64,000 bases of DNA from Candidatus Sungiibacteriota bacterium (GCA_016432465.1 CP066690.1:398823-462822); one strand, 5' to 3'; positions 10,632 to 54,645 are shown, numbered from the stretch's first letter. Translations and numbers: made by a program. Notes: generated from the letters alone by a model not told the origin.

Positions 10632-10727
10632 TGAAGTTCGATTCCCACCCCTGACAGTCAAAAAGATGGGAGGACAAACAAGCGTTAGGTCATAGGTTCA
10701 ATTCCTATCACCGGCACACGAAAAACC

Positions 10728-11234: not shown

Positions 11235-11567
11235 ATGACCGCCGAAAAACCAGACGAAGAAAAACTAAACAAGGGGCTTCCTGACAGACAACTGCCGACC
11301 CAAGAGCAGATGCAAGAGGCGTTTAACACCGAGGGGCGCTTGATTGAAAAGCATCGCGAGTGGATTGCTTTAGTGTTGGATCTAGTCAGCAAGGGGGAAA
11401 TCTCGCCCAATGGTAAAGTAGAAATTCCTATTGATCCGGAAACGGAAACAATTCTTAAAGCAGACCTTAAAGACGGAAATATAAATACGCTGGCCATTCA
11501 TCTTATGGGCAAACAGGTTTTTTACATAGATTTTAGACGTTTACATCAATCGTTGCTGAAAAAATAA
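11235..11567 (+). CDS. Hypothetical protein
   Basis: 110-aa acidic ORF. Confidence 0.4.
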   Translation: MTAEKPDEEKLNKGLPDRQLPTQEQMQEAFNTEGRLIEKHREWIALVLDLVSKGEISPNGKVEIPIDPETETILKADLKDGNINTLAIHLMGKQVFYIDFRRLHQSLLKK

Positions 11568-11677
11568 AACAGTAGCGGCCGCGAGTATATCTAAACAAAG
11601 CCCTCCGCTTGTCCCTAATAAAACGGCCATTAGAAACAGCCGGAAGTATTCGTCTCCTTGCCCGCCCCGCTTATAGC

Positions 11678-11752
11678 GGGCCGTTAGAACAGCCTGGAGT
11701 GTTCGTCTCCTTGTCACGGAGAAGGTCACGGGTTCAAATCCCGTACGGCCCG
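11678..11752 (+). tRNA. tRNA-Asp(GTC)
   Basis: Acceptor gggccgt/acggccc, D stem gaac/gttc, anticodon arm tctcc-ttGTCac-ggaga, T arm acgggttcaaatcccgt. No CCA. Confidence 0.75.
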
Positions 11753-11770
11753 CTATGTGCGGGGTTCATA

Positions 11771-12109
11771 GAGAAGGTCACGGGTTCAAATCCCGTACGG
11801 GATTTGAGGGGGCGAAAGATAAAGTCTTTCGCGGGAAATTTAGCGAGCCAGTGAAACTGTGCGAGCGTTAAAAATTTCCCGGGGTTTGCCGAGGAGGCAA
11901 ACTGAAAAACGCAAACTTCTTTGCGTTTTGAAAACCCGGGGTCAAAGCACTGCTTTGACGGGCATTTTAGCGAGCCGTCCTGAGTTTATCGAAGGACGTG
12001 CGAGCGTTAAGAAATGCCCGGGAATTTGTCGAGGAGACAAATTCGAAGGAGCGCGAAGCCTGCCGGAGGCAGTGCGTAGCGCGGGTGAGGAAAAATCCCG
12101 TACGGCCCG
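11771..12109 (+). repeat. Long variant of the tRNA-associated structured repeat element, flanked by duplicated tRNA-Asp T-arm/3'-end segments
   Basis: Bases 11771-11800 duplicate the tRNA-Asp T arm. The internal 45-nt unit gcgagcgttaa.aaat.cccggg..tttg.cgaggag.caaa occurs twice. The hairpin aaaacgcaaacttctttgcgtttt is followed by gaaaaccc. The element ends gcgggtgagga, followed by aaaatcccgtacggcccg, which duplicates 11735-11752. Confidence 0.6.
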
Positions 12110-12283
12110 TAGATAAAATAAAGTGGTGGCGCAAGCTACCATTTTATTTTGTCTTATGGGCTAGGCGAGATTTGAAGGGTATTCCAAAACGCAAACTGCT
12201 TTGCGTTTTGGAAACCCAGTTGGGATCACGTGTATTAGTATGATAACTGAATAAAAGGAGCCACTTTTCTGTGGCTCGATGAT

Positions 12284-12556
12284 TCACTCCACCAATCTAT
12301 GATTCCTGTAGTAATATCGGGTCTCATTGAAGTTGCGAAGAGCAGCTGTGCATTCCACACATCCATAAGTCCACGTTGCTCCATGTTCTTCACAAAAATA
12401 TTTATCCAACGGGCCTTCTTTTTTCCCTACGATTATCGTCTTTCCGGACTTTTTTGAACCTGCCGCGCTCTGGCTTGCTGCTATCTTTTTCATCCCCTTC
12501 AACACATACGAACGATCCATTGCTATGATTACATATTCAGATATTGGTGTCAACAA
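12284..12556 (-). CDS. Hypothetical small Cys-containing protein
   Basis: 90-aa ORF; the real start is possibly at MDRSYVLKG. Confidence 0.3.
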   Translation of the reverse strand: MLTPISEYVIIAMDRSYVLKGMKKIAASQSAAGSKKSGKTIIVGKKEGPLDKYFCEEHGATWTYGCVECTAALRNFNETRYYYRNHRLVE

Positions 12557-18500: not shown

Positions 18501-18989
18501 GACGCTGACGTTGACGGCGCGCACATCCGAACCCTGCTTCTTACTCTTTTTTATCGCTATTTTCCAATCGTGGTTGAACGCGGTTACTTATATATAGCCC
18601 AACCGCCTTTGTATAGAATTCAGTCGGGGAGGGTTGTTCATTATGCCTATTCTGACGCGGAGAAAGATAAACTGGTTGCTGAATTTAAAAAGCAAAAATT
18701 AGAAACCAAACGCGTCCGGACAGAGGCTAAGGGTACCGAGGTGTCCGAAGAAGTAATGGAGGAAACAAAGGGTATTATTATTCAACGCTACAAAGGCTTG
18801 GGCGAGATGAATCCGTCCCAACTTTGGGAAACCACCATGGATCCGCAAATCCGTACCATGAAGCAGGTCACACTAGAAGACGCCACAGAAGCGGACAGAA
18901 TTTTTGATATTTTGATGGGGGACGAAGTGTTGCCGCGAAAGAAATTTATACAAACTCACGCCAAAGCAGTTAAAAATTTAGACATCTAA
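15573..18989 (+). CDS. gyrB: DNA gyrase subunit B, interrupted in-frame by an intein
   Basis: GHKL ATPase motifs (GLHHLIWEVLDNSIDEAMAGYA) and the TOPRIM motif EGDSAGG. C-terminal gyrB motifs are present. The protein is 1138 aa including a 432-aa intein. Confidence 0.9.
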   Translation: MAKKKSRAKTKKRLPKRPPRQKRRTIRAGSKTPTTKSGESYTAKDIYVLEGLEPVRKRPGMYIGSTGVDGLHHLIWEVLDNSIDEAMAGYAKNVAITLLGNNKVMVIDDGRGIPVETHKQTKKSALETVMTTLHAGAKFGGESYKVSGGLHGVGVSVVNALSIWMKTEVCRDGYQYAQEYSRGKPKYAVKKTGKCRGSGTAVTFEPDPEVFEKIQFDWERILDHIRQQAYLTKGVKISVIDRREGGRAKDNSSLETQYSFYFEGGIISYIQYLNRNEAPKHENIFYVSKEAGIDGKKLLVEAAFQYTDDLQGKEVSFANNIHTGEGGMHLTGFRTALTRALNDYARKNEYFKKDDETLTGDDVREGITAIISVKLREPQFEGQTKAKLGNPEARTAVETVVGESVKEWLEKYPRDAQEIIGKALLAQKARKAAKAARDTVLRKGAFEGLMLPGKLADCQSRNPEESELFLVEGDSAGGCFSGDTKIALLDGRNLSFRELIPEARAGKKHYCYTMRNDGSINIAQIVNPRLTKSKAEVIKIILDNDEEIVCTTDHKFMLADGSFKEARCLQPQDSLMPLYRQFSKLGGRITIKGYEMVYDPLELRWIFTHLLSDRYNLEHSTYLESDGAHRHHKDFNKLNNNPENIIRLTDENHLELHRRLAKMFLHRPEIQAKATATKRTATYREMARQKTLEKKGLFSRNAKKQWENDTYKQYMLKKFLEFYRTHEEYRKKNNQLLDKIQKKYWADEKNREKQALRTKEFFITNPDRKIRLAEIAKQQWRDEKLLRWRASKTRGQWTPEFRVKRYAAYNQTYLRKALEVLRQIYDKYGSASEQKYNEIRQRTGDRNLIRLSTVCQRFFENDQKKLTEAVINYNHKVKKVIPLAEHIDVYDLEVPETHNFALASGVFVHNSAKQGRDRKFQAILPLRGKILNVEKARLDKMLASKEIKSLIIALGAAIGDEFDESRLRYHRTVIMTDADVDGAHIRTLLLTLFYRYFPIVVERGYLYIAQPPLYRIQSGRVVHYAYSDAEKDKLVAEFKKQKLETKRVRTEAKGTEVSEEVMEETKGIIIQRYKGLGEMNPSQLWETTMDPQIRTMKQVTLEDATEADRIFDILMGDEVLPRKKFIQTHAKAVKNLDI
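17007..18302 (+). mobile_element. Intein (432 aa) with HNH-type homing endonuclease domain inside gyrB
   Basis: It starts with Cys right after EGDSAGG (CFSGDTKIALLDG, block A). It ends ...VFVHN followed by Ser (SAKQGRD). Its internal HNH-like motif is DGAHRHHKDFNKLNNNPENIIRLTDENHLELH. Confidence 0.8.
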
Positions 18990-21243: not shown

Positions 21244-21618
21244 ATGGCAACCGGACTAGAAAACCTTTGGGTCTATAAGCTTGCCGAGGATTTAGAAATT
21301 CTTGTCTACGAAATTACTAAGGGCTTCCCAAGAGATGAGTTTTACAGAAGTATCGACCAACTGAAAAGATCTTCGGCCTCTGTCGCAAATAATATCGCGG
21401 AATCCTATCATAAGTCATCCGCAAAAGAGAAAATACGTTTTATAGATATCGCCATGGGAGAGGCCGAGGAAACCAAAAGAAATCTCATAAGATCGTTTCG
21501 CAAGGGTTTCGTTAAGGAGGATAGTAAGCAGATCGTTGATGAATACACAAAACTACTTAATGGACTCGGTGCTTATAGAAAATTCCTCTTGCTTGGAAAG
21601 ATAAAACCTAAACCTTAA
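21244..21618 (+). CDS. Four-helix-bundle protein (23S rRNA intervening-sequence protein family)
   Basis: The pattern VYKLAEDLEILVYEITKGFPRDEFYRSIDQLKRSSASVANNIAESY matches the TIGR02436-type family. The gene is inserted between nusG and rplK. Confidence 0.7.
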   Translation: MATGLENLWVYKLAEDLEILVYEITKGFPRDEFYRSIDQLKRSSASVANNIAESYHKSSAKEKIRFIDIAMGEAEETKRNLIRSFRKGFVKEDSKQIVDEYTKLLNGLGAYRKFLLLGKIKPKP

Positions 21619-36800: not shown

Positions 36801-38864
36801 ATGTCAAGAGATCTTCCGACCCAATACAATCCAAAAGAAGTAGAGGAAAAAGTCTACCGGATGTGGGAAAAATCCGGATTTTTTGCGCCCGAGGCGCATC
36901 AGCCTCGGGCTGATAATCCGAACAGTAAAAAAACTTATGCCATCGCGCTCCCCCCGCCCAATATCACCGGCTCACTTCATCTGGGACATGCGCTGAACGC
37001 AACCATTCAGGATATCTTGATCCGCAAAAAACGGATGGAGGGATACAAAACCCTCTGGCTTCCGGGGACTGATCATGCGGGGATTGCCACCCAAAATGTG
37101 GTGGAGAAGGAACTCAAGAAGGGGGGTCTAACGCGCTACGATCTTGGGCGGGAAAAATTTTTAGAAAAAGTCTGGCAATGGAAAGAAAAATACGGGGATA
37201 TTATTTTGGGTCAGTTTAAAAAACTTGGCTGTTCTCTTGATTGGTCGCGTGCCCGCTTCACTATGGATAAGGAATATCAGAAAGCAGTAAAAACCGCCTT
37301 TCTTCATTACTACAAAAAGGGTTGGATTTATAGGGCCGAGCGCGTGGTAAATTGGTGCCCGCGTTGCGCGACCTCGCTCTCGGATCTGGAACTTGAGTAT
37401 CAAGAAATCAAAGGAACTCTTTACTATATAAATTACCCGCTGGCAAATGGCGGCGGGGTTATTACGGTGGCCACCACGCGGCCAGAAACCATGCTGGGAG
37501 ATACGGCAGTAGCCGTAAATCCCAATGACGCACGCTATAAAAAATTTATTGGTAAAGAGGTGGTGCTGCCGCTAAAAAACAGAAAAATACCCGTGGTAGC
37601 TGACAAGGCCGTAGACCCCAAGTTTGGCACTGGGGCCGTAAAAGTAACCCCGGCGCACGACTTGCTTGACGCCGAAATTGCCCAACGCCACAAACTTCCT
37701 GCGATTAAAGTAATCGGTATCAACGGACGGATGACCAAAGAGGCCGAGCCAATATGTATCGGCCTTACGGCAGGAGAGTGCAGAAAAAAAGTCGTAGAGG
37801 AACTCCGTACAAAAAACTTCCTTGAACGAGAGGAGCAATACACGCATAACGTCTCGGTGTGCTATCGCTGTTCCGCTAATATTGAGCCCCTTCCTTCACT
37901 CCAGTGGTTTTTGAAAATGGACAAGCTGTCCAAAACAGCAATCGGAGCGGTAAAATCTGGCAAAGTAAAATTTCATCCCAAACGCTGGGAAAAAGTGTAT
38001 CTTGATTGGTTAAAAAACGTCAGAGACTGGACTATTTCCCGCCAAATCTGGTGGGGACATAGAATACCGCTAAAGGGCACGGAGGATGTTCTAGACACCT
38101 GGTTTTCTTCCGCGCTTTGGCCGTTTGCGACTCTAGGCTGGCCCAAAAAAACCAAAGACCTCAAAACGTTTTACCCCACGCAGGTTCTCTCCACCGCACG
38201 TGACATAATAAACCTCTGGGTCAGCCGGATGATTTTTTCGGGCCTTGAGTTTACAAAAAAAGCTCCGTTTCAAGACGTAATAATACACGCCACCATTCTC
38301 ACCAAAGAAGGAAAACGGATGTCCAAGTCGCTCGGCACCGGCATAGACCCAATGGATTTGATTTCACGCTACGGCGCCGATGCGACCCGTTTTGGCTTAG
38401 TCTGGCAAGCTATGGGTGGACAAGATATTCATTGGTCGGAAGAGCATGTGATGGCCGGTAAAAAATTTGCGAACAAACTTTGGAACATAACCCGCTTTGT
38501 GTTGTTAAAAACTAACGGGGAAATAACGGTGCCCTCCAAGGTTTCACCCCAAAGCACAGAAAGTAAAAAGATTGTCTTAAAATTGAAAAAGGTTTCAGTT
38601 TCGGTTAGTACACTTATTGATCGCTATGAGTTCGGGCCGGCCCTGCATGAACTTTATGATTTTGTCTGGCACGATTTTGCCGATAAATATATTGAGTATT
38701 CAAAAAACAAAGACAACCCGGAAACAAAACAAGTCCTTTGTTATGTTTTGATAACCACCCTTAAGCTTTTGCACCCCCTTATGCCCCTTGTCACCGAAGG
38801 CCTGTGGGGAAATCTGCCTATAAAAGGTAAAAAATTATTAATTATTGAGTCATGGCCGCGGTAA
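36801..38864 (+). CDS. valS: Valine--tRNA ligase (short form)
   Basis: PPPNITGSLHLGHALN (HIGH) and GKRMSKSLGT (KMSKS). At 687 aa it lacks the long C-terminal coiled coil. Confidence 0.8.
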   Translation: MSRDLPTQYNPKEVEEKVYRMWEKSGFFAPEAHQPRADNPNSKKTYAIALPPPNITGSLHLGHALNATIQDILIRKKRMEGYKTLWLPGTDHAGIATQNVVEKELKKGGLTRYDLGREKFLEKVWQWKEKYGDIILGQFKKLGCSLDWSRARFTMDKEYQKAVKTAFLHYYKKGWIYRAERVVNWCPRCATSLSDLELEYQEIKGTLYYINYPLANGGGVITVATTRPETMLGDTAVAVNPNDARYKKFIGKEVVLPLKNRKIPVVADKAVDPKFGTGAVKVTPAHDLLDAEIAQRHKLPAIKVIGINGRMTKEAEPICIGLTAGECRKKVVEELRTKNFLEREEQYTHNVSVCYRCSANIEPLPSLQWFLKMDKLSKTAIGAVKSGKVKFHPKRWEKVYLDWLKNVRDWTISRQIWWGHRIPLKGTEDVLDTWFSSALWPFATLGWPKKTKDLKTFYPTQVLSTARDIINLWVSRMIFSGLEFTKKAPFQDVIIHATILTKEGKRMSKSLGTGIDPMDLISRYGADATRFGLVWQAMGGQDIHWSEEHVMAGKKFANKLWNITRFVLLKTNGEITVPSKVSPQSTESKKIVLKLKKVSVSVSTLIDRYEFGPALHELYDFVWHDFADKYIEYSKNKDNPETKQVLCYVLITTLKLLHPLMPLVTEGLWGNLPIKGKKLLIIESWPR

Positions 38865-39571
38865 TAGCAACTAATCTTGGTTATATCCTCCTTACTTTTA
38901 TCCCTCCGGTATTGTGGCTTTTGTTTTATTTGCGCGAAGACAGACACCCGGAACCAAAAGTTTTGTTAATAATTACTTTCTTGGGGGGCATTGCTGCGGC
39001 CCTTTTGGCGGCGGTGGTGGAAATTTTTCTCGTTGGCAAGGGTGGGGCCGTATCTTCTTTCATCACCTTGGAAAAAAACGCTCTTTTGTTCTTTTTGATA
39101 ATCGCCTTGGTGGAAGAATATATAAAATATCTTCCGGTAAAGCTGCTGATAACGAAGCGGCCAGACTTTGACGAACCGATAGATGCTATGATTTATATGA
39201 TGACGGCCGCCCTTGGTTTTGCGGCCATAGAAAATTCGCTTTTTATTATGCCGCTTTTCCGGGAGGGTATTTTTGCGGGACTCGAGGTGGCAGCTAACCG
39301 GTTTCTGGGCGCCAATCTCTTACACGCACTCTCCTCGGGAATAGTGGGATTCTTTTTGGCCCGCGCTTTTTTCTCGCCGCGCCATCACCATTTTGTTGCT
39401 CTGGGAGTCATAGTAGCTTCCATCTTGCATGCACTTTTTAACTATCTTATACTGGTAAGAGAACTATTGCCGCAGAGTACATTTTACATTATTCTTCTTC
39501 TTTCTATAATGGCGGTAATGGTGTTTATTGATTTTGAAAGATTAAAAAATAATCCAAAGACTAAAGACTAA
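38852..39571 (+). CDS. PrsW-like intramembrane protease family membrane protein
   Basis: Polytopic protein with ALVEEYIKYLP (EExxK) and FNYLIL motifs. Confidence 0.45.
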   Translation: MAAVIATNLGYILLTFIPPVLWLLFYLREDRHPEPKVLLIITFLGGIAAALLAAVVEIFLVGKGGAVSSFITLEKNALLFFLIIALVEEYIKYLPVKLLITKRPDFDEPIDAMIYMMTAALGFAAIENSLFIMPLFREGIFAGLEVAANRFLGANLLHALSSGIVGFFLARAFFSPRHHHFVALGVIVASILHALFNYLILVRELLPQSTFYIILLLSIMAVMVFIDFERLKNNPKTKD

Positions 39572-39615
39572 AGACAAAAACATCTGTCTTTCGTCCTTCG
39601 CCTTTCGGCGTTTTT

Positions 39616-40137
39616 ATGTCTACTTTTTTTGAAAAACTAACAGGCTCAAGGCAGCCTTTGGCGTCGCCAACTGACGAGATTGTGCCGTTGGAAGAAAAAA
39701 GGCAATCTAACAAAAAGCTGTCAATGCCCAAAGAAGAAATACCACGCGCCCATTTAAAGATTGAGTTGGAGGATAACCACCCGACGACGGATGAGCTACA
39801 GGAAGAGGAGGGCGAACTTACGGTTGATATTTACGATCGCGGCGATTCTGTTATCATTCAGTCTACGGTGGCCGGAGTAAGGCCGGAGGATCTAGACGTT
39901 TCCTTGACCAACGACACCGTTACCATCAGGGGTAGAAGGGAAAAAACCGAAGAGGTGGACGAGCCTAATTATTACTACAAGGAACTTTTTTGGGGAACAT
40001 TTTCACGCTCCGTAATTTTACCGGAGGAGATAGAAGAAGATATGGCGGAGGCATCCTTAAAACACGGCCTTCTCACTATAAGAATGCCTAAACGCCGCAA
40101 GGGGGTGGTACAAAAACTAAAGGTGAAAACTGTATAG
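39616..40137 (+). CDS. Hsp20/alpha-crystallin small heat-shock protein
   Basis: The ACD core TVDIYDRGDSVIIQSTVAGVRPEDLDVSL...LPEEIEEDMAEASLKHGLLTIRMPK. Confidence 0.8.
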   Translation: MSTFFEKLTGSRQPLASPTDEIVPLEEKRQSNKKLSMPKEEIPRAHLKIELEDNHPTTDELQEEEGELTVDIYDRGDSVIIQSTVAGVRPEDLDVSLTNDTVTIRGRREKTEEVDEPNYYYKELFWGTFSRSVILPEEIEEDMAEASLKHGLLTIRMPKRRKGVVQKLKVKTV

Positions 40138-40155
40138 ATATAACAATAACTAAAT

Positions 40156-40185
40156 CGCCAAGTCTGACTTGGTGGTTTTTTATTA
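40156..40185 (+). terminator. Rho-independent terminator built on the CCAAGTCTGACTTGG palindrome
   Basis: cgccaagtctgacttggtgg followed by ttttttatt, directly after hsp20. Confidence 0.65.
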
Positions 40186-40758
40186 CTGTTTCTTTTCTAT
40201 TTTACATACAACCGATTCGTCTGTATTTTTTGATGGCAGAACAAACTCCAAAACTCTTTCTATTATTTTTTCTCTTATTGGTATATCAAAATTGGCATTT
40301 TCAAGTTCTTTTACGATACTCTCGGATTTTTTTATGAGCTCATCCGGCACCGTATTTGTTTTCTGTCCGGCGACACTTAATATCCCCTGATTTTTTGGGG
40401 GGTTTATTTTTTTTGACGATACAGTGACGGTTTTTATTTCCTCAATGTTTTTCTTCAATTCTCCTATTAGTACCGCGCGTCTTTCTTTGGGGTCTTCCGG
40501 CAAGATCGCGTCCTCTACAAATTGTCTTATCTCCTGCCGGTCTCTGCGGCCGGCAATTCCAATGAAAGCCATTGCTTTTTCGCGAAAATCTGCGGGTAAG
40601 GAATACCAACCGATCGCAATAAAAACTAAAATAGCTAAAATAGTAACAAAAAATTTCATAACATGTCTTCTATTTAAAAATTCTAACAGCCCCGAAAGCC
40701 TCCTGCAAATCGACACACCCCCACACTCATACATGGGTGTGGGGCGGTATCTGCCCAC
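40183..40758 (-). CDS. Hypothetical membrane-anchored protein
   Basis: 191 aa with an N-terminal TM helix FFVTILAILVFIAIGWY. Confidence 0.4.
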   Translation of the reverse strand: MGRYRPTPMYECGGVSICRRLSGLLEFLNRRHVMKFFVTILAILVFIAIGWYSLPADFREKAMAFIGIAGRRDRQEIRQFVEDAILPEDPKERRAVLIGELKKNIEEIKTVTVSSKKINPPKNQGILSVAGQKTNTVPDELIKKSESIVKELENANFDIPIREKIIERVLEFVLPSKNTDESVVCKIEKKQ

Positions 40759-40959
40759 GAGCCCGAAAAGAGTCGAAGTCTCTCTTCCCGAAGGAAGTAA
40801 GACTTCGGCGTAATTTTTCAGAATGGTGAGTAGCTGTGTGGGGTGAGGGGTTTACTTCTTAAAAAAATTATGTTAGAATAGAGGTTACTCATCTGAAACC
40901 ACAACCTATAGCCCAGAGAGTTATAGTAGTACTTAAAGCCCTTTTACACCAAAAAATGA

Positions 40960-40989
40960 ATCCCCCCACCTTCCGGTTGGTGGGGGGAT
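40960..40989. repeat. Stand-alone hairpin with the tcccccacc/ggtggggga inverted-repeat ends
   Basis: atccccccacc-ttccggtt-ggtggggggat lies immediately upstream of the tRNA array. Confidence 0.6.
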
Positions 40990-40997
40990 GAACCTGC

Positions 40998-41072
40998 TGG
41001 GGGATCTGCTAATTGGCAGGCGACTGGACTTTGGATCCAGAGATGAAGGTTCGAATCCTTCTCCCCCAGCCA
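40998..41072 (+). tRNA. tRNA-Gln(TTG)
   Basis: Acceptor tggggga/tccccca with discriminator g and CCA. The anticodon arm is ctgga-cttTGga-tccag and the T arm is gaaggttcgaatccttc. Confidence 0.7.
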
Positions 41073-41111
41073 AGTCTGACTTGGCCCAGCCAACCTCTGA
41101 CAAAATCCTGC

Positions 41112-41187
41112 TGCAGGGTCGGATAACTGGCAATCCAACGGACTGTTAATCCGTACGATGAGGGTTCGAATCCCTCCCCTGCAGCCA
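41112..41187 (+). tRNA. tRNA-Asn(GTT)
   Basis: Acceptor tgcaggg/ccctgca, anticodon arm acgga-ctGTTaa-tccgt, T arm gagggttcgaatccctc, CCA encoded. Confidence 0.75.
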
Positions 41188-41215
41188 ATCCTACTAATAG
41201 ATAGGGGATTCGAGT

Positions 41216-41291
41216 TGGGAGGTCGTCTAACTGGTAGGACGCCGGGCCCTGAACTCGGAAACCGAAGGTTCGAACCCTTCCCTCCCAACCA
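41216..41291 (+). tRNA. tRNA-Gln(CTG), with an atypical anticodon loop
   Basis: Acceptor tgggagg/cctccca, anticodon arm ccggg-ccCTGaa-ctcgg, T arm gaaggttcgaacccttc, CCA encoded. Confidence 0.55.
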
Positions 41292-41345
41292 AGCTAATCT
41301 TGGCCAACCAATTTGCTTTGCGTAACCTGCTTGACCATTATCTGT

Positions 41346-41419
41346 TGCGGGGAGAGCTGGCGCTCCCACCGGTCTCATAAGCCGAGTGGCGTGCGGTTCA
41401 ATTCCGCCCTCCGCAACCA
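41346..41419 (+). tRNA. tRNA, anticodon CAT (Met/Ile2), with a short D arm
   Basis: Acceptor tgcgggg/ctccgca, loop ctCATaa, T arm tgcggttcaattccgcc, CCA encoded. Confidence 0.6.
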
Positions 41420-41429
41420 AACTCCATGT

Positions 41430-41507
41430 CAGGGTGTCGCCCAGTCCGGCCAGGGCGCTTGGCTTGGGACCAAGAGGTCGTAGGTTCAAATCCTACCACC
41501 CTGACCA
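41430..41507 (+). tRNA. tRNA-Pro(TGG)
   Basis: Acceptor cagggtg/caccctg, D stem gccc/gggc, anticodon arm cttgg-ctTGGga-ccaag, T arm gtaggttcaaatcctac, CCA. Confidence 0.75.
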
Positions 41508-41540
41508 ACTCTTTTTTGATAAATCAGGACGCGTTTCAGT

Positions 41541-41616
41541 GGGGCCGTAGCTCAGTTGGGAGAGCGCCTGACCTGCAATCAGGGGGTCGTCGGTTCAAGT
41601 CCGACCGGTTCCACCA
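41541..41616 (+). tRNA. tRNA-Ala(TGC)
   Basis: Acceptor ggggccg/cggttcc with the G3:U70 pair, anticodon arm cctga-ccTGCaa-tcagg, T arm gtcggttcaagtccgac, CCA. Confidence 0.8.
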
Positions 41617-41643
41617 AAAACTTTTGGATGCAGTTCAAACGGG

Positions 41644-41720
41644 GCGGGTGTGGCCGAATGGCTAAGGCGCCAGCCTTCCAAGTTGGTTTTTTGTGGGTTC
41701 GAGTCCCACCACCCGCTCCA
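41644..41720 (+). tRNA. tRNA-Trp(CCA)
   Basis: Acceptor gcgggtg/cacccgc, anticodon arm ccagc-ctTCCAa-gttgg, T arm gtgggttcgagtcccac, CCA. Confidence 0.7.
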
Positions 41721-41863
41721 AATTTGATAAGAGGGACTCGAAGGGTATTTTAAAAAGCAAATGTTTTTGCTTTTTAAAAACCCAGGCTCCGAAGGAGCGC
41801 GGAGCCTCCGACAGAAGTCGGAGTGCGAAGCGCGAGTGAGGAGGAGTCCCACCACCCGCTCCA
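41721..41863 (+). repeat. tRNA-associated structured repeat element (copy 1) with a 20-nt duplication of the tRNA-Trp 3' end
   Basis: Core gggactcgaagggtatttt + hairpin aaaaagcaaatgtttttgcttttt + aaaaccc + ggctccgaaggagcgcggagcc + tccgacagaagtcggag + tgcgaagcgcgagtgaggagg. Then gagtcccaccacccgctcca, identical to 41701-41720. Confidence 0.7.
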
Positions 41864-41893
41864 AGACTTTTCTTCCCAGAGTCGAATATCGGT

Positions 41894-41968
41894 GGTGACC
41901 TTGGCCGAGAGACGAGGCATCGGACTGTGGCTCCGAGCACGTGGGTTTGAATCCCATAGGTCACCCCA
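41894..41968 (+). tRNA. tRNA-His(GTG) with encoded G-1
   Basis: g-gtgacct...aggtcac-c-cca; anticodon arm tcgga-ctGTGgc-tccga; T arm gtgggtttgaatcccat. Confidence 0.75.
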
Positions 41969-41980
41969 ACCCCTTCTGGT

Positions 41981-42056
41981 GTGGCTGTCGCCGAAATGGA
42001 CAGGCGCCAGATTGCAAATCTGGTCTATGCGGGTTCGAATCCCGTCAGCCACTCCA
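41981..42056 (+). tRNA. tRNA-Cys(GCA)
   Basis: Acceptor gtggctg/cagccac, anticodon arm ccaga-ttGCAaa-tctgg, T arm gcgggttcgaatcccgt, CCA. Confidence 0.75.
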
Positions 42057-42086
42057 AATCTGATCAACCAAACCACTTGAATCCGG

Positions 42087-42162
42087 GCCACGGTAGCTCA
42101 GACGGTAGAGCGCTGGTCTGAAGAACCGGAGGTCGCTAGCTCGAAACTAGCCCGTGGCACCA
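42087..42162 (+). tRNA. tRNA-Phe(GAA)
   Basis: Acceptor gccacgg/ccgtggc, D arm gctcagacggtagagc, anticodon arm ctggt-ctGAAga-accgg, T arm gctagctcgaaactagc, CCA. Confidence 0.8.
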
Positions 42163-42173
42163 AGATTCCCTGC

Positions 42174-42252
42174 GGTGGCGTAGCTTAGCCAGGCCTAAAG
42201 CGCCGGCCCGTCAAGCCGGAGGTCACGGGTTCGAATCCCGTCGCCATCGCCA
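42174..42252 (+). tRNA. tRNA-Asp(GTC)
   Basis: Acceptor ggtggcg/cgccatc, anticodon arm ccggc-ccGTCaa-gccgg, T arm acgggttcgaatcccgt, disc g, CCA. Confidence 0.7.
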
Positions 42253-42284
42253 AGTCTGACTTGGCCATCGCCAAATCGTTGAGT

Positions 42285-42359
42285 GGGCGGTTAGCTCAGC
42301 GGAAGAGCATCTCGTTTACACCGAGGGGGTCGTAGGTTCAAATCCTACACCGCCCACCA
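42285..42359 (+). tRNA. tRNA-Val(TAC)
   Basis: Acceptor gggcggt/accgccc, D arm gctcagcggaagagc, anticodon arm tctcg-ttTACac-cgagg, T arm gtaggttcaaatcctac, CCA. Confidence 0.75.
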
Positions 42360-42412
42360 AGTCTGACTTGGCCCGCCAAACAACACACTAAAATTAATAA
42401 CGGTAGGACAGC

Positions 42413-42499
42413 GGGTCGGAGCGGTGATGGGTGACACCAGCGGACTCCAAATCCGTCGACCAAATGGTCTTGGGGGTTCGAATCCTCCCCGGCCCGCCA
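42413..42499 (+). tRNA. Class II (long variable arm) tRNA with anticodon CCA; its body is near-identical to tRNA-Tyr
   Basis: Acceptor gggtcgg/ccggccc. Its D arm gagcggtgatgggtgacaccagc is identical to the Tyr tRNA at 42637. The anticodon arm is gcgga-ctCCAaa-tccgt. Long variable arm, T arm gggggttcgaatcctcc, CCA. Confidence 0.5.
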
Positions 42500-42535
42500 A
42501 GTCTGACTTGGCCCGCCAACCCAAAAAAATCCAGT

Positions 42536-42612
42536 GTGCCGTTAACTCAGCCCGGTAGAGTTCCAGACTCTTAATCTGGGAGCCAGAGGTTCGAATCCTC
42601 TACGGCACACCA
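42536..42612 (+). tRNA. tRNA-Lys(CTT)
   Basis: Acceptor gtgccgt/acggcac, anticodon arm ccaga-ctCTTaa-tctgg, T arm agaggttcgaatcctct, CCA. Confidence 0.75.
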
Positions 42613-42636
42613 AGTCTAAACCGAAATATCAGAGGT

Positions 42637-42724
42637 GGGTGGGAGCGGTGATGGGTGACACCAGCGGACTGTAACTCCGTGGGACCAAAAATCCTTGTAG
42701 GTTCAAATCCTACCCCACCCACCA
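42637..42724 (+). tRNA. tRNA-Tyr(GTA), class II
   Basis: Acceptor gggtggg/cccaccc, anticodon arm gcgga-ctGTAac-tccgt, long variable arm, T arm gtaggttcaaatcctac, CCA. Confidence 0.75.
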
Positions 42725-42748
42725 AACCCAAACAATAGAAACTCTTGT

Positions 42749-42831
42749 GCCGGGGTGGTGGAATTGGTAGACACTGCGGACTTAGGATCCGCTGGGCAAC
42801 CGTGCAGGTTCGAGTCCTGTCCCCGGCACCA
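42749..42831 (+). tRNA. tRNA-Leu(TAG), class II
   Basis: Acceptor gccgggg/ccccggc, anticodon arm gcgga-ctTAGga-tccgc, long variable arm, T arm gcaggttcgagtcctgt, CCA. Confidence 0.75.
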
Positions 42832-42842
42832 GATTTCCAAGT

Positions 42843-43070
42843 CGCGGGATGGCGGAACTTGGCAGACGCTCCAGATCGAGGGTCTGGTGGGAAACCGTGA
42901 GGGTTAAAATCCCGTCGCCATCGCCAAGTCTGACCAAACGGGATTTGAAGGGTATTTCAAAACATGAATGTCTTCATGTTTTGAAAACCCGGGTTCCGAA
43001 GGAGCGCGGAGCCTCCGACAGAAGTCGGAGTGCGAAGCGCGGGTGAGGAAAAATCCCTCTCCCGCGACCA
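42843..43070 (+). tRNA. tRNA-Leu(GAG)-like class II gene interrupted within its T loop by a 144-nt insertion
   Basis: The 5' part (42843-42913) has acceptor cgcggga, anticodon arm ccaga-tcGAGgg-tctgg and T stem/loop gagggttaaaatccc. The matching 3' part, aaaatccctc-tcccgcg-a-cca, is at 43050-43070. Confidence 0.5.
42914..43057 (+). repeat. tRNA-associated structured repeat element (copy 2) inserted in a tRNA T loop, carrying a tRNA-Asp-like 3' fragment
   Basis: gtcgccatcgccaagtctgacc resembles the tRNA-Asp 3' end plus the palindrome. Then the core ggatttgaagggtatttcaaaacatgaatgtcttcatgttttgaaaacccgggttccgaaggagcgcggagcctccgacagaagtcggagtgcgaagcgcgggtgagga; flanked by duplicated aaaatccc. Confidence 0.65.
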
Positions 43071-43097
43071 CACAAATAATTGTGACCAGCAGACAGA

Positions 43098-43175
43098 GCA
43101 CCCGTAGCTCAATCGGACTAGAGCGTCTGCCCTGTAAGCAGAGGGTTGTCAGTTCAAATCTGACCGGGTGCTCCA
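43098..43175 (+). tRNA. tRNA-Thr(TGT)
   Basis: Acceptor gcacccg/cgggtgc, anticodon arm tctgc-ccTGTaa-gcaga, T arm gtcagttcaaatctgac, CCA. Confidence 0.7.
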
Positions 43176-43219
43176 CCAAGCTCAGCTTGGTCCATCAATC
43201 CAGAGCTTGATATTCCGGT

Positions 43220-43306
43220 GGTGGGATGGCTGAGTCTGGCTTAAGGCAGCGGTTTGCTAAACCGTGGGCGAAAGCCTCGAGGGTTCAAATCCTTCTCCCA
43301 CCGCCA
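43220..43306 (+). tRNA. tRNA-Ser(GCT), class II
   Basis: Acceptor ggtggga/tcccacc, anticodon arm gcggt-ttGCTaa-accgt, long variable arm, T arm gagggttcaaatccttc, CCA. Confidence 0.7.
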
Positions 43307-43372
43307 AGTCTAACTTGGCTGGGGCCAAGTCTGATTTGATCACCAAAAACGAATTTCTTTTTGAAAATCAGG

Positions 43373-43448
43373 GCGCCCATAGCTCAGCGAATAGAGCGCC
43401 CCGCTACGGACGGGGAGGTCGCGGGTTTAAATCCTGCTGGGCGCTCCA
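43373..43448 (+). tRNA. tRNA-Arg(ACG)
   Basis: Acceptor gcgccca/tgggcgc, anticodon arm ccccg-ctACGga-cgggg, T arm gcgggtttaaatcctgc, CCA. Confidence 0.75.
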
Positions 43449-43458
43449 AATGCTCGGT

Positions 43459-43536
43459 GCCCGAGTAGCCCAACTGGCAGAGGCAGCGGACTTAAAATCC
43501 GAAAAGTGGTGGGTTCGAATCCCCCCTCGGGCACCA
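43459..43536 (+). tRNA. tRNA with anticodon TAA (Leu-like acceptor and T arm) but no long variable arm
   Basis: Acceptor gcccgag/ctcgggc with disc a and CCA; anticodon arm gcgga-ctTAAaa-tccga; variable region only about 5 nt; 78 nt total. Confidence 0.45.
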
Positions 43537-43549
43537 AATACTACAAAAT

Positions 43550-43680
43550 GGGATTCGAAGGGTATTTCAAAACATGAATGTCTTCATGTTTTGAAAACCC
43601 GGGCTCCGAAGGAGCGCGGAGCCTCCGACAGAAGTCGGAGTGCAAAGCGCGGGTGAGGAGGAATCCCCCCTCGGGCACCA
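43550..43680 (+). repeat. tRNA-associated structured repeat element (copy 3) with a 20-nt duplication of the upstream tRNA 3' end
   Basis: The core matches copy 2 almost exactly (ggattcgaagggtatttcaaaacatgaatgtcttcatgttttgaaaacccgggctccgaagg...gcgggtgaggagg). It is followed by gaatcccccctcgggcacca, which is identical to 43517-43536. Confidence 0.7.
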
Positions 43681-43702
43681 AAAGCGTCAAAGGAAACGCG
43701 GT

Positions 43703-43778
43703 GCAGGGATAGCTCAGTTGGTAGAGCACTGGACCGATAATCCAGAGGTCGATGGTTCGAACCCATCTCCCTGTACCA
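43703..43778 (+). tRNA. tRNA-Ile(GAT)
   Basis: Acceptor gcaggga/tccctgt, anticodon arm ctgga-ccGATaa-tccag, T arm gatggttcgaacccatc, CCA. Confidence 0.7.
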
Positions 43779-43817
43779 ACCAAAGTTCTTTTTAAAAACA
43801 ACCAAAATCTGACGTGG

Positions 43818-43896
43818 GGGCCCGTAGCTCAGCCAGGACCAGAGCAGGGGACTTCTAATCCTCTGGCCGGAGGTTCAAATCCTCCCGGGCCTACCA
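43818..43896 (+). tRNA. tRNA-Arg(TCT)
   Basis: Acceptor gggcccg/cgggcct, anticodon arm gggga-ctTCTaa-tcctc, T arm ggaggttcaaatcctcc, CCA. Confidence 0.7.
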
Positions 43897-43914
43897 ATCC
43901 CCACAAACCAAAAC

Positions 43915-43950
43915 GGGCATGTCATAAAGACATGCCTTTTGTGTTTTTTG
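43915..43950 (+). terminator. Rho-independent terminator closing the tRNA array
   Basis: ggcatgtc-ataaa-gacatgcc followed by ttttgtgtttttt. Confidence 0.75.
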
Positions 43951-44106
43951 GGGGGGACAAAATAAAAAAAGGCATCGGTTGGTGTCGCAGACATTCCAGC
44001 CGCAGATATCATGGTGGGGTTTACGCGGATCAACCCTACTTTATTTTCATCACTTAGATTGCTCTGCGAACTTTTGTGAGGCGACTCTATGATTCACTAA
44101 CTTGAA

Positions 44107-44340
44107 TTAGTTCTTTATATCTTTGTGAACACGCTTAATCATGTTTTCTATCGTTTTGTTCAACCCGCCACTTTCAACAGCAAGTTCCCGTAAAATGTCG
44201 GCCTGATTAGCTGTATCATTCACTCCTAAAAGTTGGTTTAACAACCCAGAGACCCTTTTTTGTCTTTCTTGTGCTAATTCGGTCATGAAATTCAAATCTT
44301 CTTTTCTTTCAGATTCTTTATTTGTTGGCTGTTGCTCCAT
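44107..44340 (-). CDS. Hypothetical small protein
   Basis: 77-aa ORF. Confidence 0.35.
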   Translation of the reverse strand: MEQQPTNKESERKEDLNFMTELAQERQKRVSGLLNQLLGVNDTANQADILRELAVESGGLNKTIENMIKRVHKDIKN

Positions 44341-44491
44341 ACTATTCTGTTTATAGATTTATTTGATTTTAGACCTTTAATTAGGAAGGCCCTTATACTA
44401 AATCATAGTCAATAGCATTTATTTCTCTTGGTGGAGAATGTCTGGACAAGCGGCAAACTTTTGTACGCAGACTGTATGGAGTGATGATAAG

Positions 44492-45718
44492 TCAGTTTTT
44501 GGATTCAAATAGTTCTATCTCTCTGGGTTGTTGAGCACCAAACTCTTTAATAACCCCGCGCGCTGATTCTAATACTGCAGCTTTTATTCTAACGGCATCG
44601 GTTGTGACATTGGTTAGGCCGGAATCTCGCGGCCAGAGAATACCGATATTTACGCCTTTTTGCTTTTGTATAAACTCAAGCGATTTCCTAATTTGTTCTT
44701 TGATTCGTAAGAATTTTTCTACTGTTCCTAATGAAGCTGCTGGGATGACTTTGGAAGCTCCTTCGATAAGCTCCGATACGAGATATTCGCCGGGGGTCGT
44801 TTCAAATGCGTCCATTCGGTCAAAGGGTGTATTTGGTAAAATTAATATATCTGTCGGTTGAAATTGTTCAATCACTTTTTCAACCGGCATAGGATCAAAG
44901 GCTCCGTCAACATATCGTCCGTCATTCACCTCAACCGCTTTTCGATAAGCAATCGGGGCAGCCATAGAGGCATGAAACGGGCTTATCATATCGGGTGTAG
45001 CTGTTTTTACATCTATGAATTTCGATTTGAATGTCTTGGGATCAGTAACACCGACATAGAGTTCTTGCGGCGAATCCATAATCGCTTTTTGGTCAAGAGT
45101 TTTTGGACCGTGGCGCATTGCCTTGGCGATAAAATCGACGTTCATAATCTGATGTAAGCGCCTGAAATCAATAAAATCTTTTGTGGTGCACTCTTCATAA
45201 AAAAGAGAGGTTCCAATTTGTGCTTGCTCTTTCCCCGCTGAAAAATAGGCGGCTGTGCCGGCTCCGGCAGAAATACCCACTACAACATCAAATGCTCTAC
45301 CCAAACCAACTTCGTGCAATCCCAAGGCCTGTCCAGCGCTATAAGGACCCTTCATGCCTCCTCCTAGTATTAGGAGAACAAACTTTCGTGGCCTTTCTTC
45401 TTTACCGTCCCGTCTTTGGATAAGATGATCTAAAACCGACCTTAGATTTCTCTCCCAGGCTTGAAACTCTTCGGTTCTCCTCCGTTCAAAATCAGCATTA
45501 TCTCGCAGGGCCTCCTCGTGTGCAAAGTCCATTGCCGTCATTTGCGCTTTCCATCCGATTCCGCGTCTCCAGTCCATAACTTTTTGCAGCAGCCCCCGTT
45601 CATTAAACTCCTTTGCCATTTTCTCAAATCGCTGTTGATGAAATTCAAATTCTGCCGGAATCTCCTCGGCGGAGCCAGCTGTCTCCCTTTTTATATTATT
45701 TGGTGGGCCTTCTTTCAT
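44492..45718 (-). CDS. Patatin-like phospholipase family protein
   Basis: Oxyanion motif GGGMKG and a GxSxG motif (GISAGA), plus a downstream DGA/DGG-type region. Confidence 0.75.
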   Translation of the reverse strand: MKEGPPNNIKRETAGSAEEIPAEFEFHQQRFEKMAKEFNERGLLQKVMDWRRGIGWKAQMTAMDFAHEEALRDNADFERRRTEEFQAWERNLRSVLDHLIQRRDGKEERPRKFVLLILGGGMKGPYSAGQALGLHEVGLGRAFDVVVGISAGAGTAAYFSAGKEQAQIGTSLFYEECTTKDFIDFRRLHQIMNVDFIAKAMRHGPKTLDQKAIMDSPQELYVGVTDPKTFKSKFIDVKTATPDMISPFHASMAAPIAYRKAVEVNDGRYVDGAFDPMPVEKVIEQFQPTDILILPNTPFDRMDAFETTPGEYLVSELIEGASKVIPAASLGTVEKFLRIKEQIRKSLEFIQKQKGVNIGILWPRDSGLTNVTTDAVRIKAAVLESARGVIKEFGAQQPREIELFESKN

Positions 45719-45973
45719 AAAAAATGAAATAACTTGGCAAAATCTGGTACAAGTTGATCTATGGGATATTCTAAACTTTGCGCGAAATTTCTTTGAGCGA
45801 AACTGACCGCCTCCGCTTCCTGCCTGCGCCGAGGCTTCGGCGGGCAGGCGCTCCGGCGGGACGCTCCGCCTTCGTTGAAACTTCGGCGGACAGGTCGGGT
45901 GCGGCGGAATTCCTCCCTCACCTCGCCCTTGCGCCGCGCCCTCGCGAGAGGCCAGAATTTTTTCGCCGCCAAA

Positions 45974-53067: not shown

Positions 53068-54645
53068 TTATTTAACATAATATTTTGCCTTGATCCCCGA
53101 AATTCTTTCGTCTTCGGTCATCTCCACCTTAGTTTCTGCCACCTCGGCGATCTTTACAAGCTCCTCATCCGAAAGCTTGCCGAGTTCTTGAATACGCGCC
53201 TCAAGTTTTTCTTTGGTGTTTTTTGTTGGTTCGTCAATAACTTCCTGCAGCAAAACTTCAAGCACGTGTCCTACTTTCGGCCCCGGAGAAATTTCTAAAA
53301 TCCTCATAACATCCTCGCCGTTTACTTTAAGCATTTTGGGCGTTGGCGCCTCTTCCTCCCGCAAAATTTTCTCAACACGAAACTGAAAGTGGCGCAGACG
53401 ATAGGGAACGGCTTTAGGCACACCCATACCCATCCGGTCACAAATCCGCACTTTAACTAAATCCTCCATATTTTCTGCGCCCACGTGACGTATAAGTCTC
53501 CGAACCGATGAATCAGTAATTCCTTCGTCCGGATCGTACTTAAAAAGATGCCAGCGAATGAGTTTGGCAATTTTCTCAATAGCGGCGTGTGGAAAATGGA
53601 GCCGCCCTAAAATCGCAGTGGCCATTTTTGCGCCCACCACATCATGCCCGTAAAAAGTCCATTCGTTATTTTTCATCGGACCTTTGGTGGCCGGCTTTCC
53701 AACGTCGTGCAGAAGCGCGGCAATCCGAACATCAAGCGGAAACTTGGATTTAGCGCCGTACTCCAACGCCTTCAGGTTGTGTTCCCAGATTGTAAAAATT
53801 TTTGGCCGGTTTTCTACGCCGATTCCTTCTTCAACTTCAGACAAAAAGTGCTTAAGAAGACCAAGCTCGTGCAGCAACTCAACCCCTTCTTTGGCTTGGG
53901 GCGTCCCAAGAATTTTTATAAACTCGTCCCGAATGCGCTCTTTGGCAATAAAGGTTAGGCTGCCGGCGTTATGTAAAATTGCCTCGCGCGTTTTCTCTTC
54001 AATTTCCCAGCCAGAGACTGGTCCGCCTTGGGCGGAAAGCTCCACAGCAAATCGCACTGCCCTTATCATGCGCAGAGCGTCTTCCTCAAATCTTTTTTCC
54101 GGATCGCCCACGGCGCGGATCAATTTTTTTTCTAAATCTTTTTGTCCTTCATGGGGATCAACCAGACTTAAATCAAGCGCCATGGCAATCGCATTTATGG
54201 TAAAATCGCGCCGCGATAAATCCTCTTCCAGCGTTTCGGCAAATCTTACCGAGTCGGGGTGTCTCTTGTCGGTATACTTCCCTTCAGCGCGAAAAGTGGT
54301 AATTTCAATTTCTTGAAGAGTCTGGTCTTTAGATTCTGTTCTTACGGTTACCGTGAGAAACTTATTTTCGTAAAAAGCTCCGGCCCCGACGTCGGGAGTC
54401 GGGGTCCCGACTTCTTTACCCACTTCAAGAATGGGGCGTCGGGAAAAAAGTTTCAAAATTTCTTCGGGTTTGGCCGAAGTAGTTACATCCCAATCTTTGG
54501 GCTTCTCGCCCCTTAATAAATCCCGTACGCATCCACCAACAATAAACGCTTGGTGGCCAGCGTTTTGTAGGGCACTGATTATGCTATGTACCTCTTGAGG
54601 AATTTCTATGTTTTTACGTTTCATCCTTAGTTGATAATACCCCAA
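53068..54645 (-). CDS. cca: CCA-adding enzyme (tRNA nucleotidyltransferase) with HD domain
   Basis: Pol-beta head AFIVGGCVRDLLRGEKPKDWDVTT and HD motif LLHDVGK. The start may be the internal Met 7 codons downstream. Confidence 0.8.
   Translation of the reverse strand: MGYYQLRMKRKNIEIPQEVHSIISALQNAGHQAFIVGGCVRDLLRGEKPKDWDVTTSAKPEEILKLFSRRPILEVGKEVGTPTPDVGAGAFYENKFLTVTVRTESKDQTLQEIEITTFRAEGKYTDKRHPDSVRFAETLEEDLSRRDFTINAIAMALDLSLVDPHEGQKDLEKKLIRAVGDPEKRFEEDALRMIRAVRFAVELSAQGGPVSGWEIEEKTREAILHNAGSLTFIAKERIRDEFIKILGTPQAKEGVELLHELGLLKHFLSEVEEGIGVENRPKIFTIWEHNLKALEYGAKSKFPLDVRIAALLHDVGKPATKGPMKNNEWTFYGHDVVGAKMATAILGRLHFPHAAIEKIAKLIRWHLFKYDPDEGITDSSVRRLIRHVGAENMEDLVKVRICDRMGMGVPKAVPYRLRHFQFRVEKILREEEAPTPKMLKVNGEDVMRILEISPGPKVGHVLEVLLQEVIDEPTKNTKEKLEARIQELGKLSDEELVKIAEVAETKVEMTEDERISGIKAKYYVK

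Follow-up and report, generated by a model that had tools for sequence, protein, structure and literature searches.

The stretch of DNA considered here, called the window over its full length of 64,000 nucleotides (Candidatus Sungiibacteriota bacterium, GCA_016432465.1 CP066690.1:398823-462822), is a chromosomal segment of a bacterium of the Patescibacteria, or Candidate Phyla Radiation (CPR), and contains an array of tRNA genes in which a palindrome of 15 nucleotides, CCAAGTCTGACTTGG (hereafter the 15-mer), directly follows the discriminator base N73 of several tRNAs. The window also holds the housekeeping genes for leucyl-tRNA synthetase (LeuRS), PheRS alpha, GyrB with an intein (15573-18989), NusG, ribosomal protein L11, TsaD and the CCA-adding enzyme (53068-54645); the best LeuRS identity is 68%, and the LeuRS matches are titled Candidatus Harrisonbacteria, Candidatus Paceibacterota and uncultured Candidatus Saccharibacteria, the top match being titled Spirochaetia.

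The tRNA array (40998-43896, plus strand) comprises 24 tRNAs called by ARAGORN, a Met-like tRNA that is not called, and a disrupted tRNA-Leu(GAG). A CCA end is encoded in every array tRNA and is mostly absent from the tRNAs elsewhere in the window, for which the loci at 6818, 11678, 48917, 49858, 55406 and 58883 were set against the array; the array tRNA-Asp and tRNA-Lys are 74% and 69% identical, respectively, to their non-array counterparts, and the G+C content is 55% in the array against 47% in the window. On these grounds the array looks acquired, probably as a second, partly redundant tRNA set. The window matches Logan assemblies made independently from several SRA runs with 100% identity over 38032-41814 and 43614-45791, so the array region is no assembly artefact.

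The 15-mer at tRNA 3' ends of the window

The 15-mer consists of two inverted halves of seven bases around one central base, with 53% G+C. Five exact copies are present in the 64 kb (at 40158, 41070, 42250, 42357 and 42497), and with up to three mismatches the number rises to 16 matches, against a mean of 1.6 in shuffled sequences, none of 100 shuffles reaching 16. As the initial annotation had claimed, the last four exact copies lie at tRNA ends: according to ARAGORN they start at tRNA position 74, the first CCA of the palindrome being positions 74-76 of tRNA-Gln(ttg), tRNA-Asp, tRNA-Val and a Trp(cca)-like tRNA. The enrichment at tRNA 3' ends that had been suspected is also borne out, as measured in the window alone, where the probability that at least four of five copies fall on one of the 28 tRNA ends is 1.8e-13. 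The copies and variants are as follows.

40158-40172, plus strand: exact palindrome at the stem tip of the hsp20 intrinsic terminator, with a T-run at 40176-40181 and no flanking direct repeat
41070-41092, plus strand: exact palindrome (41070-41084) after N73 of tRNA-Gln(ttg), then the repeat CCCAG (41085-41089), then CCA
41289-41310, plus strand: decayed variant CCAAGCTAATCTTGG after N73 of tRNA-Gln(ctg), then the repeat CCAA, then CCA
42054-42077, plus strand: degenerate copy CCAAATCTGATCAACCAAA after N73 of tRNA-Cys, then the 5-nt repeat CCACT
42250-42273, plus strand: exact palindrome after N73 of tRNA-Asp, then the repeat CCATCG, then CCA
42357-42378, plus strand: exact palindrome after N73 of tRNA-Val, then CCCGCCA as in the Trp trailer, one base off Val's own CCCACCA
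42497-42518, plus strand: exact palindrome after N73 of the Trp(cca)-like tRNA, then the repeat CCCG, then CCA
42610-42617, plus strand: partial copy CCAAGTCT after tRNA-Lys
42924-42934, plus strand: partial copy CCAAGTCTGAC inside the disrupted tRNA-Leu(GAG), carried along with a tRNA-Asp 3' end
43176-43194, plus strand: variant CCAAGCTCAGCTTGG behind the tRNA-Thr CCA, still perfectly palindromic, two of its pairs differing by compensatory changes, then the repeat TCCA
43304-43339, plus strand: two decayed tandem copies, CCAAGTCTAACTTGG and CCAAGTCTGATTTGA, after tRNA-Ser

In the array the native CCA comes after the direct repeat. The earlier observation that the tRNA end reappears behind the palindrome holds for both tRNA-Gln genes, tRNA-Asp and the Trp(cca)-like tRNA, but not for tRNA-Ser, where there is no clear repeat, nor for tRNA-Val, which carries the Trp version in a trailer that is an exact 23-nt copy of the Trp trailer. 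The variant at tRNA-Thr had been recognised, with its start at 43173 instead of 43176; it is the exception in the series, since it follows a separate tRNA CCA and thus sits after A76, not N73. Likewise, the partial copy that had been placed at 42921 exists but starts at 42924.

At the tRNAs the 15-mer is predicted to fold into a stem of 6-7 bp beside an intact cloverleaf. Downstream of hsp20 it belongs to a predicted hairpin (stem 40152-40178, -13.3 kcal/mol, z = -4.6) which, with its T-run, confirms the terminator assigned there. The combination of hairpin and T-run that defines an intrinsic terminator was seen at hsp20 (40152-40181) and at two positions, 17065 and 20048, of contig L004, a Harrisonbacteria metagenome-assembled genome (JACPTS010000001), and was not seen at any tRNA-linked copy.

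Copies in other genomes and the direct repeats

Metagenome contigs were scanned for an exact 15-mer with a T-loop upstream at the right distance. Eight contigs from different samples were returned; each has the 15-mer directly behind a tRNA gene, for serine (gga, gct) or alanine (ggc, cgc, tgc), and a repeat of the tRNA end immediately after it, the layout being N73, the palindrome, a repeat of the last 4-5 nt ending at N73, and the native trailer (for instance GGTCCA / palindrome / TCCA / caacaag, or CCTCCG / palindrome / CTCCG / cttgac). Most tRNA genes beside these copies do not encode CCA; the Ala and Ser copies thus occur where other tRNAs are without it, which shows that the unit brings its own CCA and lies after N73. 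The repeat bases are intact in all eight copies, although the immediately downstream DNA is unalignable. At tRNA-Ala(cgc) the element is present in contig L084 and absent in L088, in L089 and at 48917 of the window. Contig L085 has two units in tandem, which is consistent with a second insertion at the same N73 site, and the first tRNA-Ala of L084 is followed by a decayed copy, CCACTTCAGACGTGG with TCCAC, which joins the decay series formed in the window by CCAAGTCTAACTTGG, CCAAGCTAATCTTGG, CCAAGTCT... and the tRNA-Cys copy CCAAATCTGAT... with its repeat CCACT.

The LeuRS-anchored loci L002-L081 (~1.25 Mb; mostly titled Patescibacteria, with some other phyla) contain no copy except in L004, and none of the 80 LeuRS-anchored loci of relatives has a tRNA array beside LeuRS. 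In L004, one copy, which is not near a tRNA, sits in the loop of a terminator hairpin and is flanked by the 6-nt repeat CGAAAG, and a variant, TCAAGTCTGACTTGA, keeps its pairing through compensatory changes. The T-loop-linked palindrome was not found in viral contigs, and in the literature neither a paper with the 15-mer nor a description of such elements in CPR bacteria was found. A different motif (...TTCGC...GCTCAGYGCAAGCRC...) is shared by the trailers of neighbouring CCA-less tRNA-Arg and tRNA-Ser genes in L083 (360-620) and L086, one of which contains the hairpin GCCCCGCTTAGCGGGGC.

An abutting repeat of at least 4 nt accompanies 11 of the 13 tRNA-linked exact copies and 2 of 80 occurrences in viral contigs (Fisher p = 9.5e-11), so that the downstream duplications exceed chance, as had been proposed. 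The control comprises 80 bare 15-mers which are taken as chance occurrences because they lie within the coding sequence of unrelated phages. The repeats stop at N73 and vary with the tRNA (TCCA, CTCCG, CCCAG, CCATCG, CCCG). At the right junction, a microhomology of 1-3 nt is possible in Ala (GG), Trp (GG), Asp (G) and L004 (G) and is absent in Ser, Gln and Thr; a tendency of the first repeat base to pair with N73 was not significant, given the C-rich acceptor 3' strands. One phage-coding 15-mer, at 2013-2039 of L174 (IMGVR_UViG_3300042934_000707), has a 6-nt direct repeat, AATCGG, with no tRNA nearby; about 0.02 such cases are expected in 80 occurrences, and its status as a chance match may be only apparent.

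Origin of the 15-mer

Taken together, the sequence and position of the 15-mer, its direct repeats, its predicted hairpin and its spread over tRNAs and contigs in various states of decay suggest, with a probability of about 0.55, that it is a miniature, non-autonomous palindromic insertion element of a Patescibacteria lineage, with a target-site duplication. This is the better supported of the two readings offered by the initial annotation, a tiny insertion with target-site duplication at CCA ends or a processing or termination hairpin, with the correction that the site is placed after N73 and not at a pre-existing CCA. On this reading, the inserted unit is the whole palindrome including its CCA, placed after N73 with a direct repeat of 4-6 nt. 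An enzyme acting in trans may introduce it at a staggered break, the fill-in of which would leave the 4-6-base repeat of the target, with a strong preference for the 73/74 junction just 3' of N73; the tRNA gene would be kept intact and would gain a gene-encoded CCA. Copies in a trailer would be co-transcribed with the tRNA and fold into the 6-7-bp hairpin that includes CCA, and cleavage of the RNase Z type at N73 together with the CCA-adding enzyme would render the insertion harmless, since everything 3' of N73 is removable and CCA can be added again, the gene for the CCA-adding enzyme being present in the window. Thereafter, copies may decay by point mutation, pile up in tandem at one site or occasionally be co-opted as a terminator stem.

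Several points nevertheless weigh against an insertion element. The scan of 56 open reading frames (ORFs) of the window (~20 short ORFs lie outside it) revealed no transposase, integrase or reverse transcriptase, nor did the surroundings of the copies in L088 and L089, and we know of no element of understood enzymology as small as 15 bp. In every copy not selected for it, the central T lies on the transcribed strand, a bias that double-strand cut-and-paste would not predict. The repeat is variable in length (4-6 nt, or 4-7 nt if the terminal GG of the palindrome is counted in), and the hsp20 copy and one L004 terminator copy have none. The metagenome scan was conditioned on both the tRNA context and the exact 15-mer, so that its matches speak neither to enrichment at tRNAs beyond the window nor to conservation of the 15-mer, and several copies at Ala and at Ser may share ancestry, with a single original event behind each group.

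What the initial annotation described as a processing or termination hairpin corresponds to a functional trailer signal in RNA, which would sequester CCA or mark 3' processing or termination of the tRNA precursor and would be selected and spread by recombination, the direct repeat being part of the signal or a by-product. Such a function is unlikely as the explanation of the 15-mer, but it has partial support: the predicted hairpin adjoins the acceptor stem and leaves the cloverleaf undisturbed; pairing is kept through double changes in the Thr variant CCAAGCTCAGCTTGG, in TCAAGTCTGACTTGA of L004 and at pair 4-12 of CCACTTCAGACGTGG in L084; the 15-mer forms the terminator stem at hsp20 and at L004:17065; and the repeat bases are intact in the eight metagenome copies. 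The kept pairing, the constant strand of the central T and the terminator stems argue for a hairpin of nucleic acid, in single-stranded DNA or RNA, rather than a duplex site read by a protein, and because of them a functional trailer hairpin stays in play, either as a rival or as a complement to the insertion reading. Against it, no T-run follows the 15-mer at tRNAs, and the decayed copies of the array indicate weak constraint; a hairpin abutting N73 is missing from most tRNAs of the same genomes and from all 128 tRNAs of the other LeuRS-anchored loci (mostly Patescibacteria), where terminator hairpins begin at least 7 nt downstream. A general CPR habit of placing hairpins right after N73 was therefore discarded. 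The 6-nt repeat around the terminator-loop copy and the L085 tandem are left unexplained by a trailer signal, and it is not evident why a CCA-less tRNA gene would need a hairpin that sequesters CCA. A mimic of an RNase P minihelix (hairpin plus NCCA) was also rejected, as it fits tRNA-Ala only, with its repeat TCCA, and not Ser, Gln or Asp.

Insertion in the absence of dedicated machinery, in which template switching during replication, or repair through microhomology, at strongly transcribed tRNA genes would take the hairpin from another copy and resume synthesis a few bases upstream to produce the repeat, is a serious alternative because the repeat length varies, microhomology is possible at the right junctions of Ala, Trp, Asp and L004, and the Trp trailer has been copied to Val over 23 nt; the Asp 3' end copied with half a palindrome into tRNA-Leu(GAG), and a perfect 22-nt snap-back palindrome, TCAAATCCCGTACGGGATTTGA, after tRNA-Asp (11787-11808), also speak for it. 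It is nonetheless judged rather improbable, given that the Ser, Gln and Thr junctions are devoid of microhomology, that the left junction is always exactly N73 (A76 in Thr), and that every genome with the identical 15-mer would need a donor copy of its own. Self-primed, snap-back extension of a hairpin was rejected, since it would add the complement of the tRNA end, and a direct repeat is observed instead.

There is only a slim chance that the 15-mer is the scar or solo end of a larger element targeting tRNA 3' ends, either the ~110-nt element described below or an integrase-borne island, left after excision or deletion. Traces of other events at tRNA 3' ends do exist in the window (17-20-nt tRNA-end duplications around a structured element, orphan 3' fragments, a nested tRNA), and half a palindrome directly precedes the ~110-nt element in tRNA-Leu(GAG). 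The eight metagenome contigs and L004, however, have the palindrome without any copy of a larger element, and the larger element lacks the palindrome at its ends. An opened DNA hairpin end was rejected as a source, since the resulting palindrome would take its sequence from the flank and have an even length, unlike the constant 15-mer with its odd length. Finally, the binding site of a dimeric DNA-binding protein, or a signal of the DNA-uptake type, lying near tRNA genes by coincidence is very improbable: the symmetric 7-1-7 palindrome, the pilin-like gene at 306-863 and the copies in terminators, where Neisseria has paired uptake sequences, would suit it, but the variants alter the sequence and keep the pairing, which fits a nucleic-acid hairpin better, the density is low and concentrated at tRNA position 74, and the flanking direct repeats are unexplained.

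If the 15-mer is an insertion element, its closest known counterparts would be, by analogy, the organellar palindromic hairpin elements, followed by REP/REPIN sequences, miniature inverted-repeat transposable elements (MITEs) and the small dispersed repeats of cyanobacteria. The GC clusters of yeast mitochondria, such as GC42, are palindromes with AG or ACT flanking repeats; single copies as well as tandem arrays are known, and the clusters lack a transposase of their own (PMC4478555). Like these organellar elements, the 15-mer is short, hairpin-forming, dispersed and sporadic, with short direct repeats, tandem copies and no transposase of its own. GC-rich PstI palindromes reportedly flank tRNA genes in Neurospora mitochondria, where Yin, Heckman and RajBhandary are said to have proposed them in 1981 as processing signals. 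Both GC clusters and PstI palindromes are ~18-42 nt long and GC-rich within an AT-rich organelle genome, whereas the 15-mer is bacterial, of 15 nt and 53% G+C; the repeat of the GC clusters is a fixed di- or trinucleotide and that of the 15-mer is 4-6 nt of the tRNA acceptor end, and the 15-mer, unlike the organellar elements, is placed at one exact nucleotide and brings CCA.

REP/REPIN sequences, mobilised by RAYT, are marked by a conserved 5' tetranucleotide of the GTAG type, number in the hundreds, move as doublets and show no target duplication (PMC3116915). The 15-mer resembles them as a short, non-autonomous extragenic palindrome, often at gene 3' ends and forming a hairpin in the transcript, but it has neither GTAG nor any other constant flanking tetranucleotide, and it does have direct repeats and a preference for tRNA ends; no gene for RAYT, a Y1 HUH transposase, was found among the 56 window ORFs scanned with Pfam. 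MITEs are ~50-500 bp long, with a recognisable parent insertion sequence and a duplication of fixed length. The 15-mer shares with them terminal inverted repeats (its 7-bp halves), a target-site duplication and the lack of coding capacity, and differs in its 15-bp unit and its duplication of 4-6 bp; it has no known parent, and no insertion sequence was found in the window or in the loci examined. The dispersed repeats of 21-27 nt in Nostoc and other cyanobacteria, as reportedly described by Elhai et al. in 2008, are palindromic and are said to be inferred as mobile from insertions in homologous sequence, with no known enzyme; the 15-mer belongs to another phylum, has another sequence and, unlike these repeats as reported, shows specificity for the tRNA 73/74 junction. 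At the attachment (att) sites of integrases in tRNA genes, direct repeats of ~15 nt or more of the tRNA 3' end surround an integrase-encoding element on the kilobase scale. The 15-mer likewise has direct repeats of the tRNA 3' end and leaves the tRNA gene intact, but with 4-6 nt of repeat on a 15-nt unit it falls far short of the size of a tyrosine-integrase site, and no integrase was found. The combination of 15 nt, a bacterial host, placement at a single nucleotide after N73, donation of CCA and a repeat of the acceptor end sets the 15-mer apart from all the systems compared.

An element of this kind would be among the smallest mobile sequences known in bacteria, with single-nucleotide target precision at the discriminator/CCA boundary, in a phylum without cultured genetics. 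It would offer one route from CCA-less to CCA-encoding tRNA genes, would single out the 3' ends of tRNA genes as hot spots of insertion in reduced genomes, and would explain to annotators why, in CPR bins, some 'CCA' calls are odd, acceptor ends are duplicated and tRNA genes such as tRNA-Leu(GAG) are broken.

A second element and other tRNA irregularities

A longer, unannotated sequence with a core of about 110 nt also lies at tRNA 3' ends, in the positions below.

41733-41863, plus strand: copy 1, after tRNA-Gly, with GGGACTC (7 nt, complement of the T-loop), a structured core of ~104 nt and a 20-nt copy of tRNA positions 57-76
42940-43070, plus strand: copy 2, inside tRNA-Leu(GAG), which is completed only by the 3' end behind the element
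43550-43680, plus strand: copy 3, after tRNA-Leu(taa)
11799-12109, plus strand: long version (~310 nt) after a CCA-less tRNA-Asp, ending with a 17-nt copy of tRNA positions 57-73
12167-12219: solo 5' half
41205-41215: 10-nt remnant after tRNA-Asn
2895-3022 of the unrelated Logan contig L090, minus strand: copy after a CCA-less tRNA-Leu(cag)

The L090 copy came from a protein-database search with spurious ORFs overlapping the element or the array, which gave nothing else. Each copy follows the same layout: the tRNA, a trailer of 12-14 nt, a 7-nt segment, the conserved core, and a direct copy of tRNA positions 57-73 (57-76 if CCA is encoded), the window copies 1-3 amounting to ~130 nt in total each and the long version at tRNA-Asp having its inner module triplicated. 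Complementarity between the 7-nt segment and its host tRNA, over the 3' half of the T-loop and the start of the T-stem, was seen in five of five copies and with three different sequences (GGGACTC, GGGATTC and GGGATTT opposite GAGTCCC, GAATCCC and AAATCCC, respectively). The core is predicted to form a three-way junction, in which 10 base pairs covary among only four sequences. The disrupted tRNA-Leu(GAG) (42843-43070) is composed of a 5' part up to the T-loop, a tRNA-Asp 3' end with half a palindrome, the ~110-nt element and its own 3' end; the 5' part joined to the copy behind the element is called tRNA-Leu(gag) by ARAGORN, and the chimera as it stands is not called.

Searches with Rfam 15 (gathering thresholds and E up to 10) over 40100-44100 and 10350-12350 matched only tRNA models, and no ribozyme, group I intron, retron msr or sRNA. 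The core was not found in viral contigs, nor its exact sequence in GTDB genome contigs, and 45 viral matches to a 17-mer of the element were put down to chance; no further copies were recovered with a covariance model (~1.06 Mb, mostly Patescibacteria loci) or with nhmmer (~1.37 Mb). A hammerhead-like core was rejected, as GUGAGGA mismatches CUGAUGA at essential positions, and so was a guide RNA of the TnpB type, which would target its own locus.

On the simplest reading of these sequences, this would be a further non-autonomous element, whose choice of tRNA is made through pairing with the T-loop. In elements of the IS200/IS605 type (PATE), a guide 5' of a subterminal hairpin pairs with the target, there are no terminal inverted repeats or duplications, and the Y1 transposase acts in trans. 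Compared with these, the ~110-nt element has its 7-nt T-loop complement just 5' of hairpin P2 in five of five copies and a 17-20-nt repeat of the tRNA end, and no transposase was found. As at many att sites, the repeat begins in the T-loop (position 57), but unlike att islands the whole is only ~130 nt, has no integrase and carries an inverted copy of the T-loop half. It is conceivable, though doubtful, that Patescibacteria have a mobile-DNA system directed at tRNA ends, with at least two non-autonomous elements, the 15-nt hairpin that donates CCA after N73 and the T-loop-guided element of ~110 nt, served by one common machinery that reads tRNA 3' ends and that might work via single-stranded DNA or a tRNA-primed or tRNA-templated step. 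The T-loop pairing hints at target selection guided by base pairing, which would be of interest for programmable insertion.

Other tRNA genes of the window are also irregular. After tRNA-Asp, a partial second copy of the T-arm (11770-11808) abuts its own reverse complement, giving the palindrome TCAAATCCCGTACGGGATTTGA mentioned above, in appearance the signature of a snap-back. At 10442-10656, a gene resembling a Met(CAT) tRNA is split by an insert with perfect 19-bp inverted repeats (10496-10514 and 10613-10631), inside which lies a second tRNA-Met, complete and with CCA (10535-10607); ARAGORN gives a weak tRNA-Met call once the insert is taken out, and an orphan tRNA 3' fragment lies at 10688-10719. 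Within the array, the Met(CAT)-like tRNA at 41346-41419, with encoded CCA and a very short D-arm, is called by neither ARAGORN nor Rfam. The tRNA with the Trp anticodon (CCA) at 42413-42499 has 87 nt and a long variable arm, is 80% identical to the neighbouring tRNA-Tyr (42637-42724), with which it has the D-arm in common, and scores 48 bits in Rfam against a tRNA-Sec threshold of 47 bits; it appears to derive from a tRNA-Tyr whose anticodon was switched. Finally, an ORF of the 23S-rRNA-intervening-sequence family (21244-21618) lies between nusG and the L11 gene.

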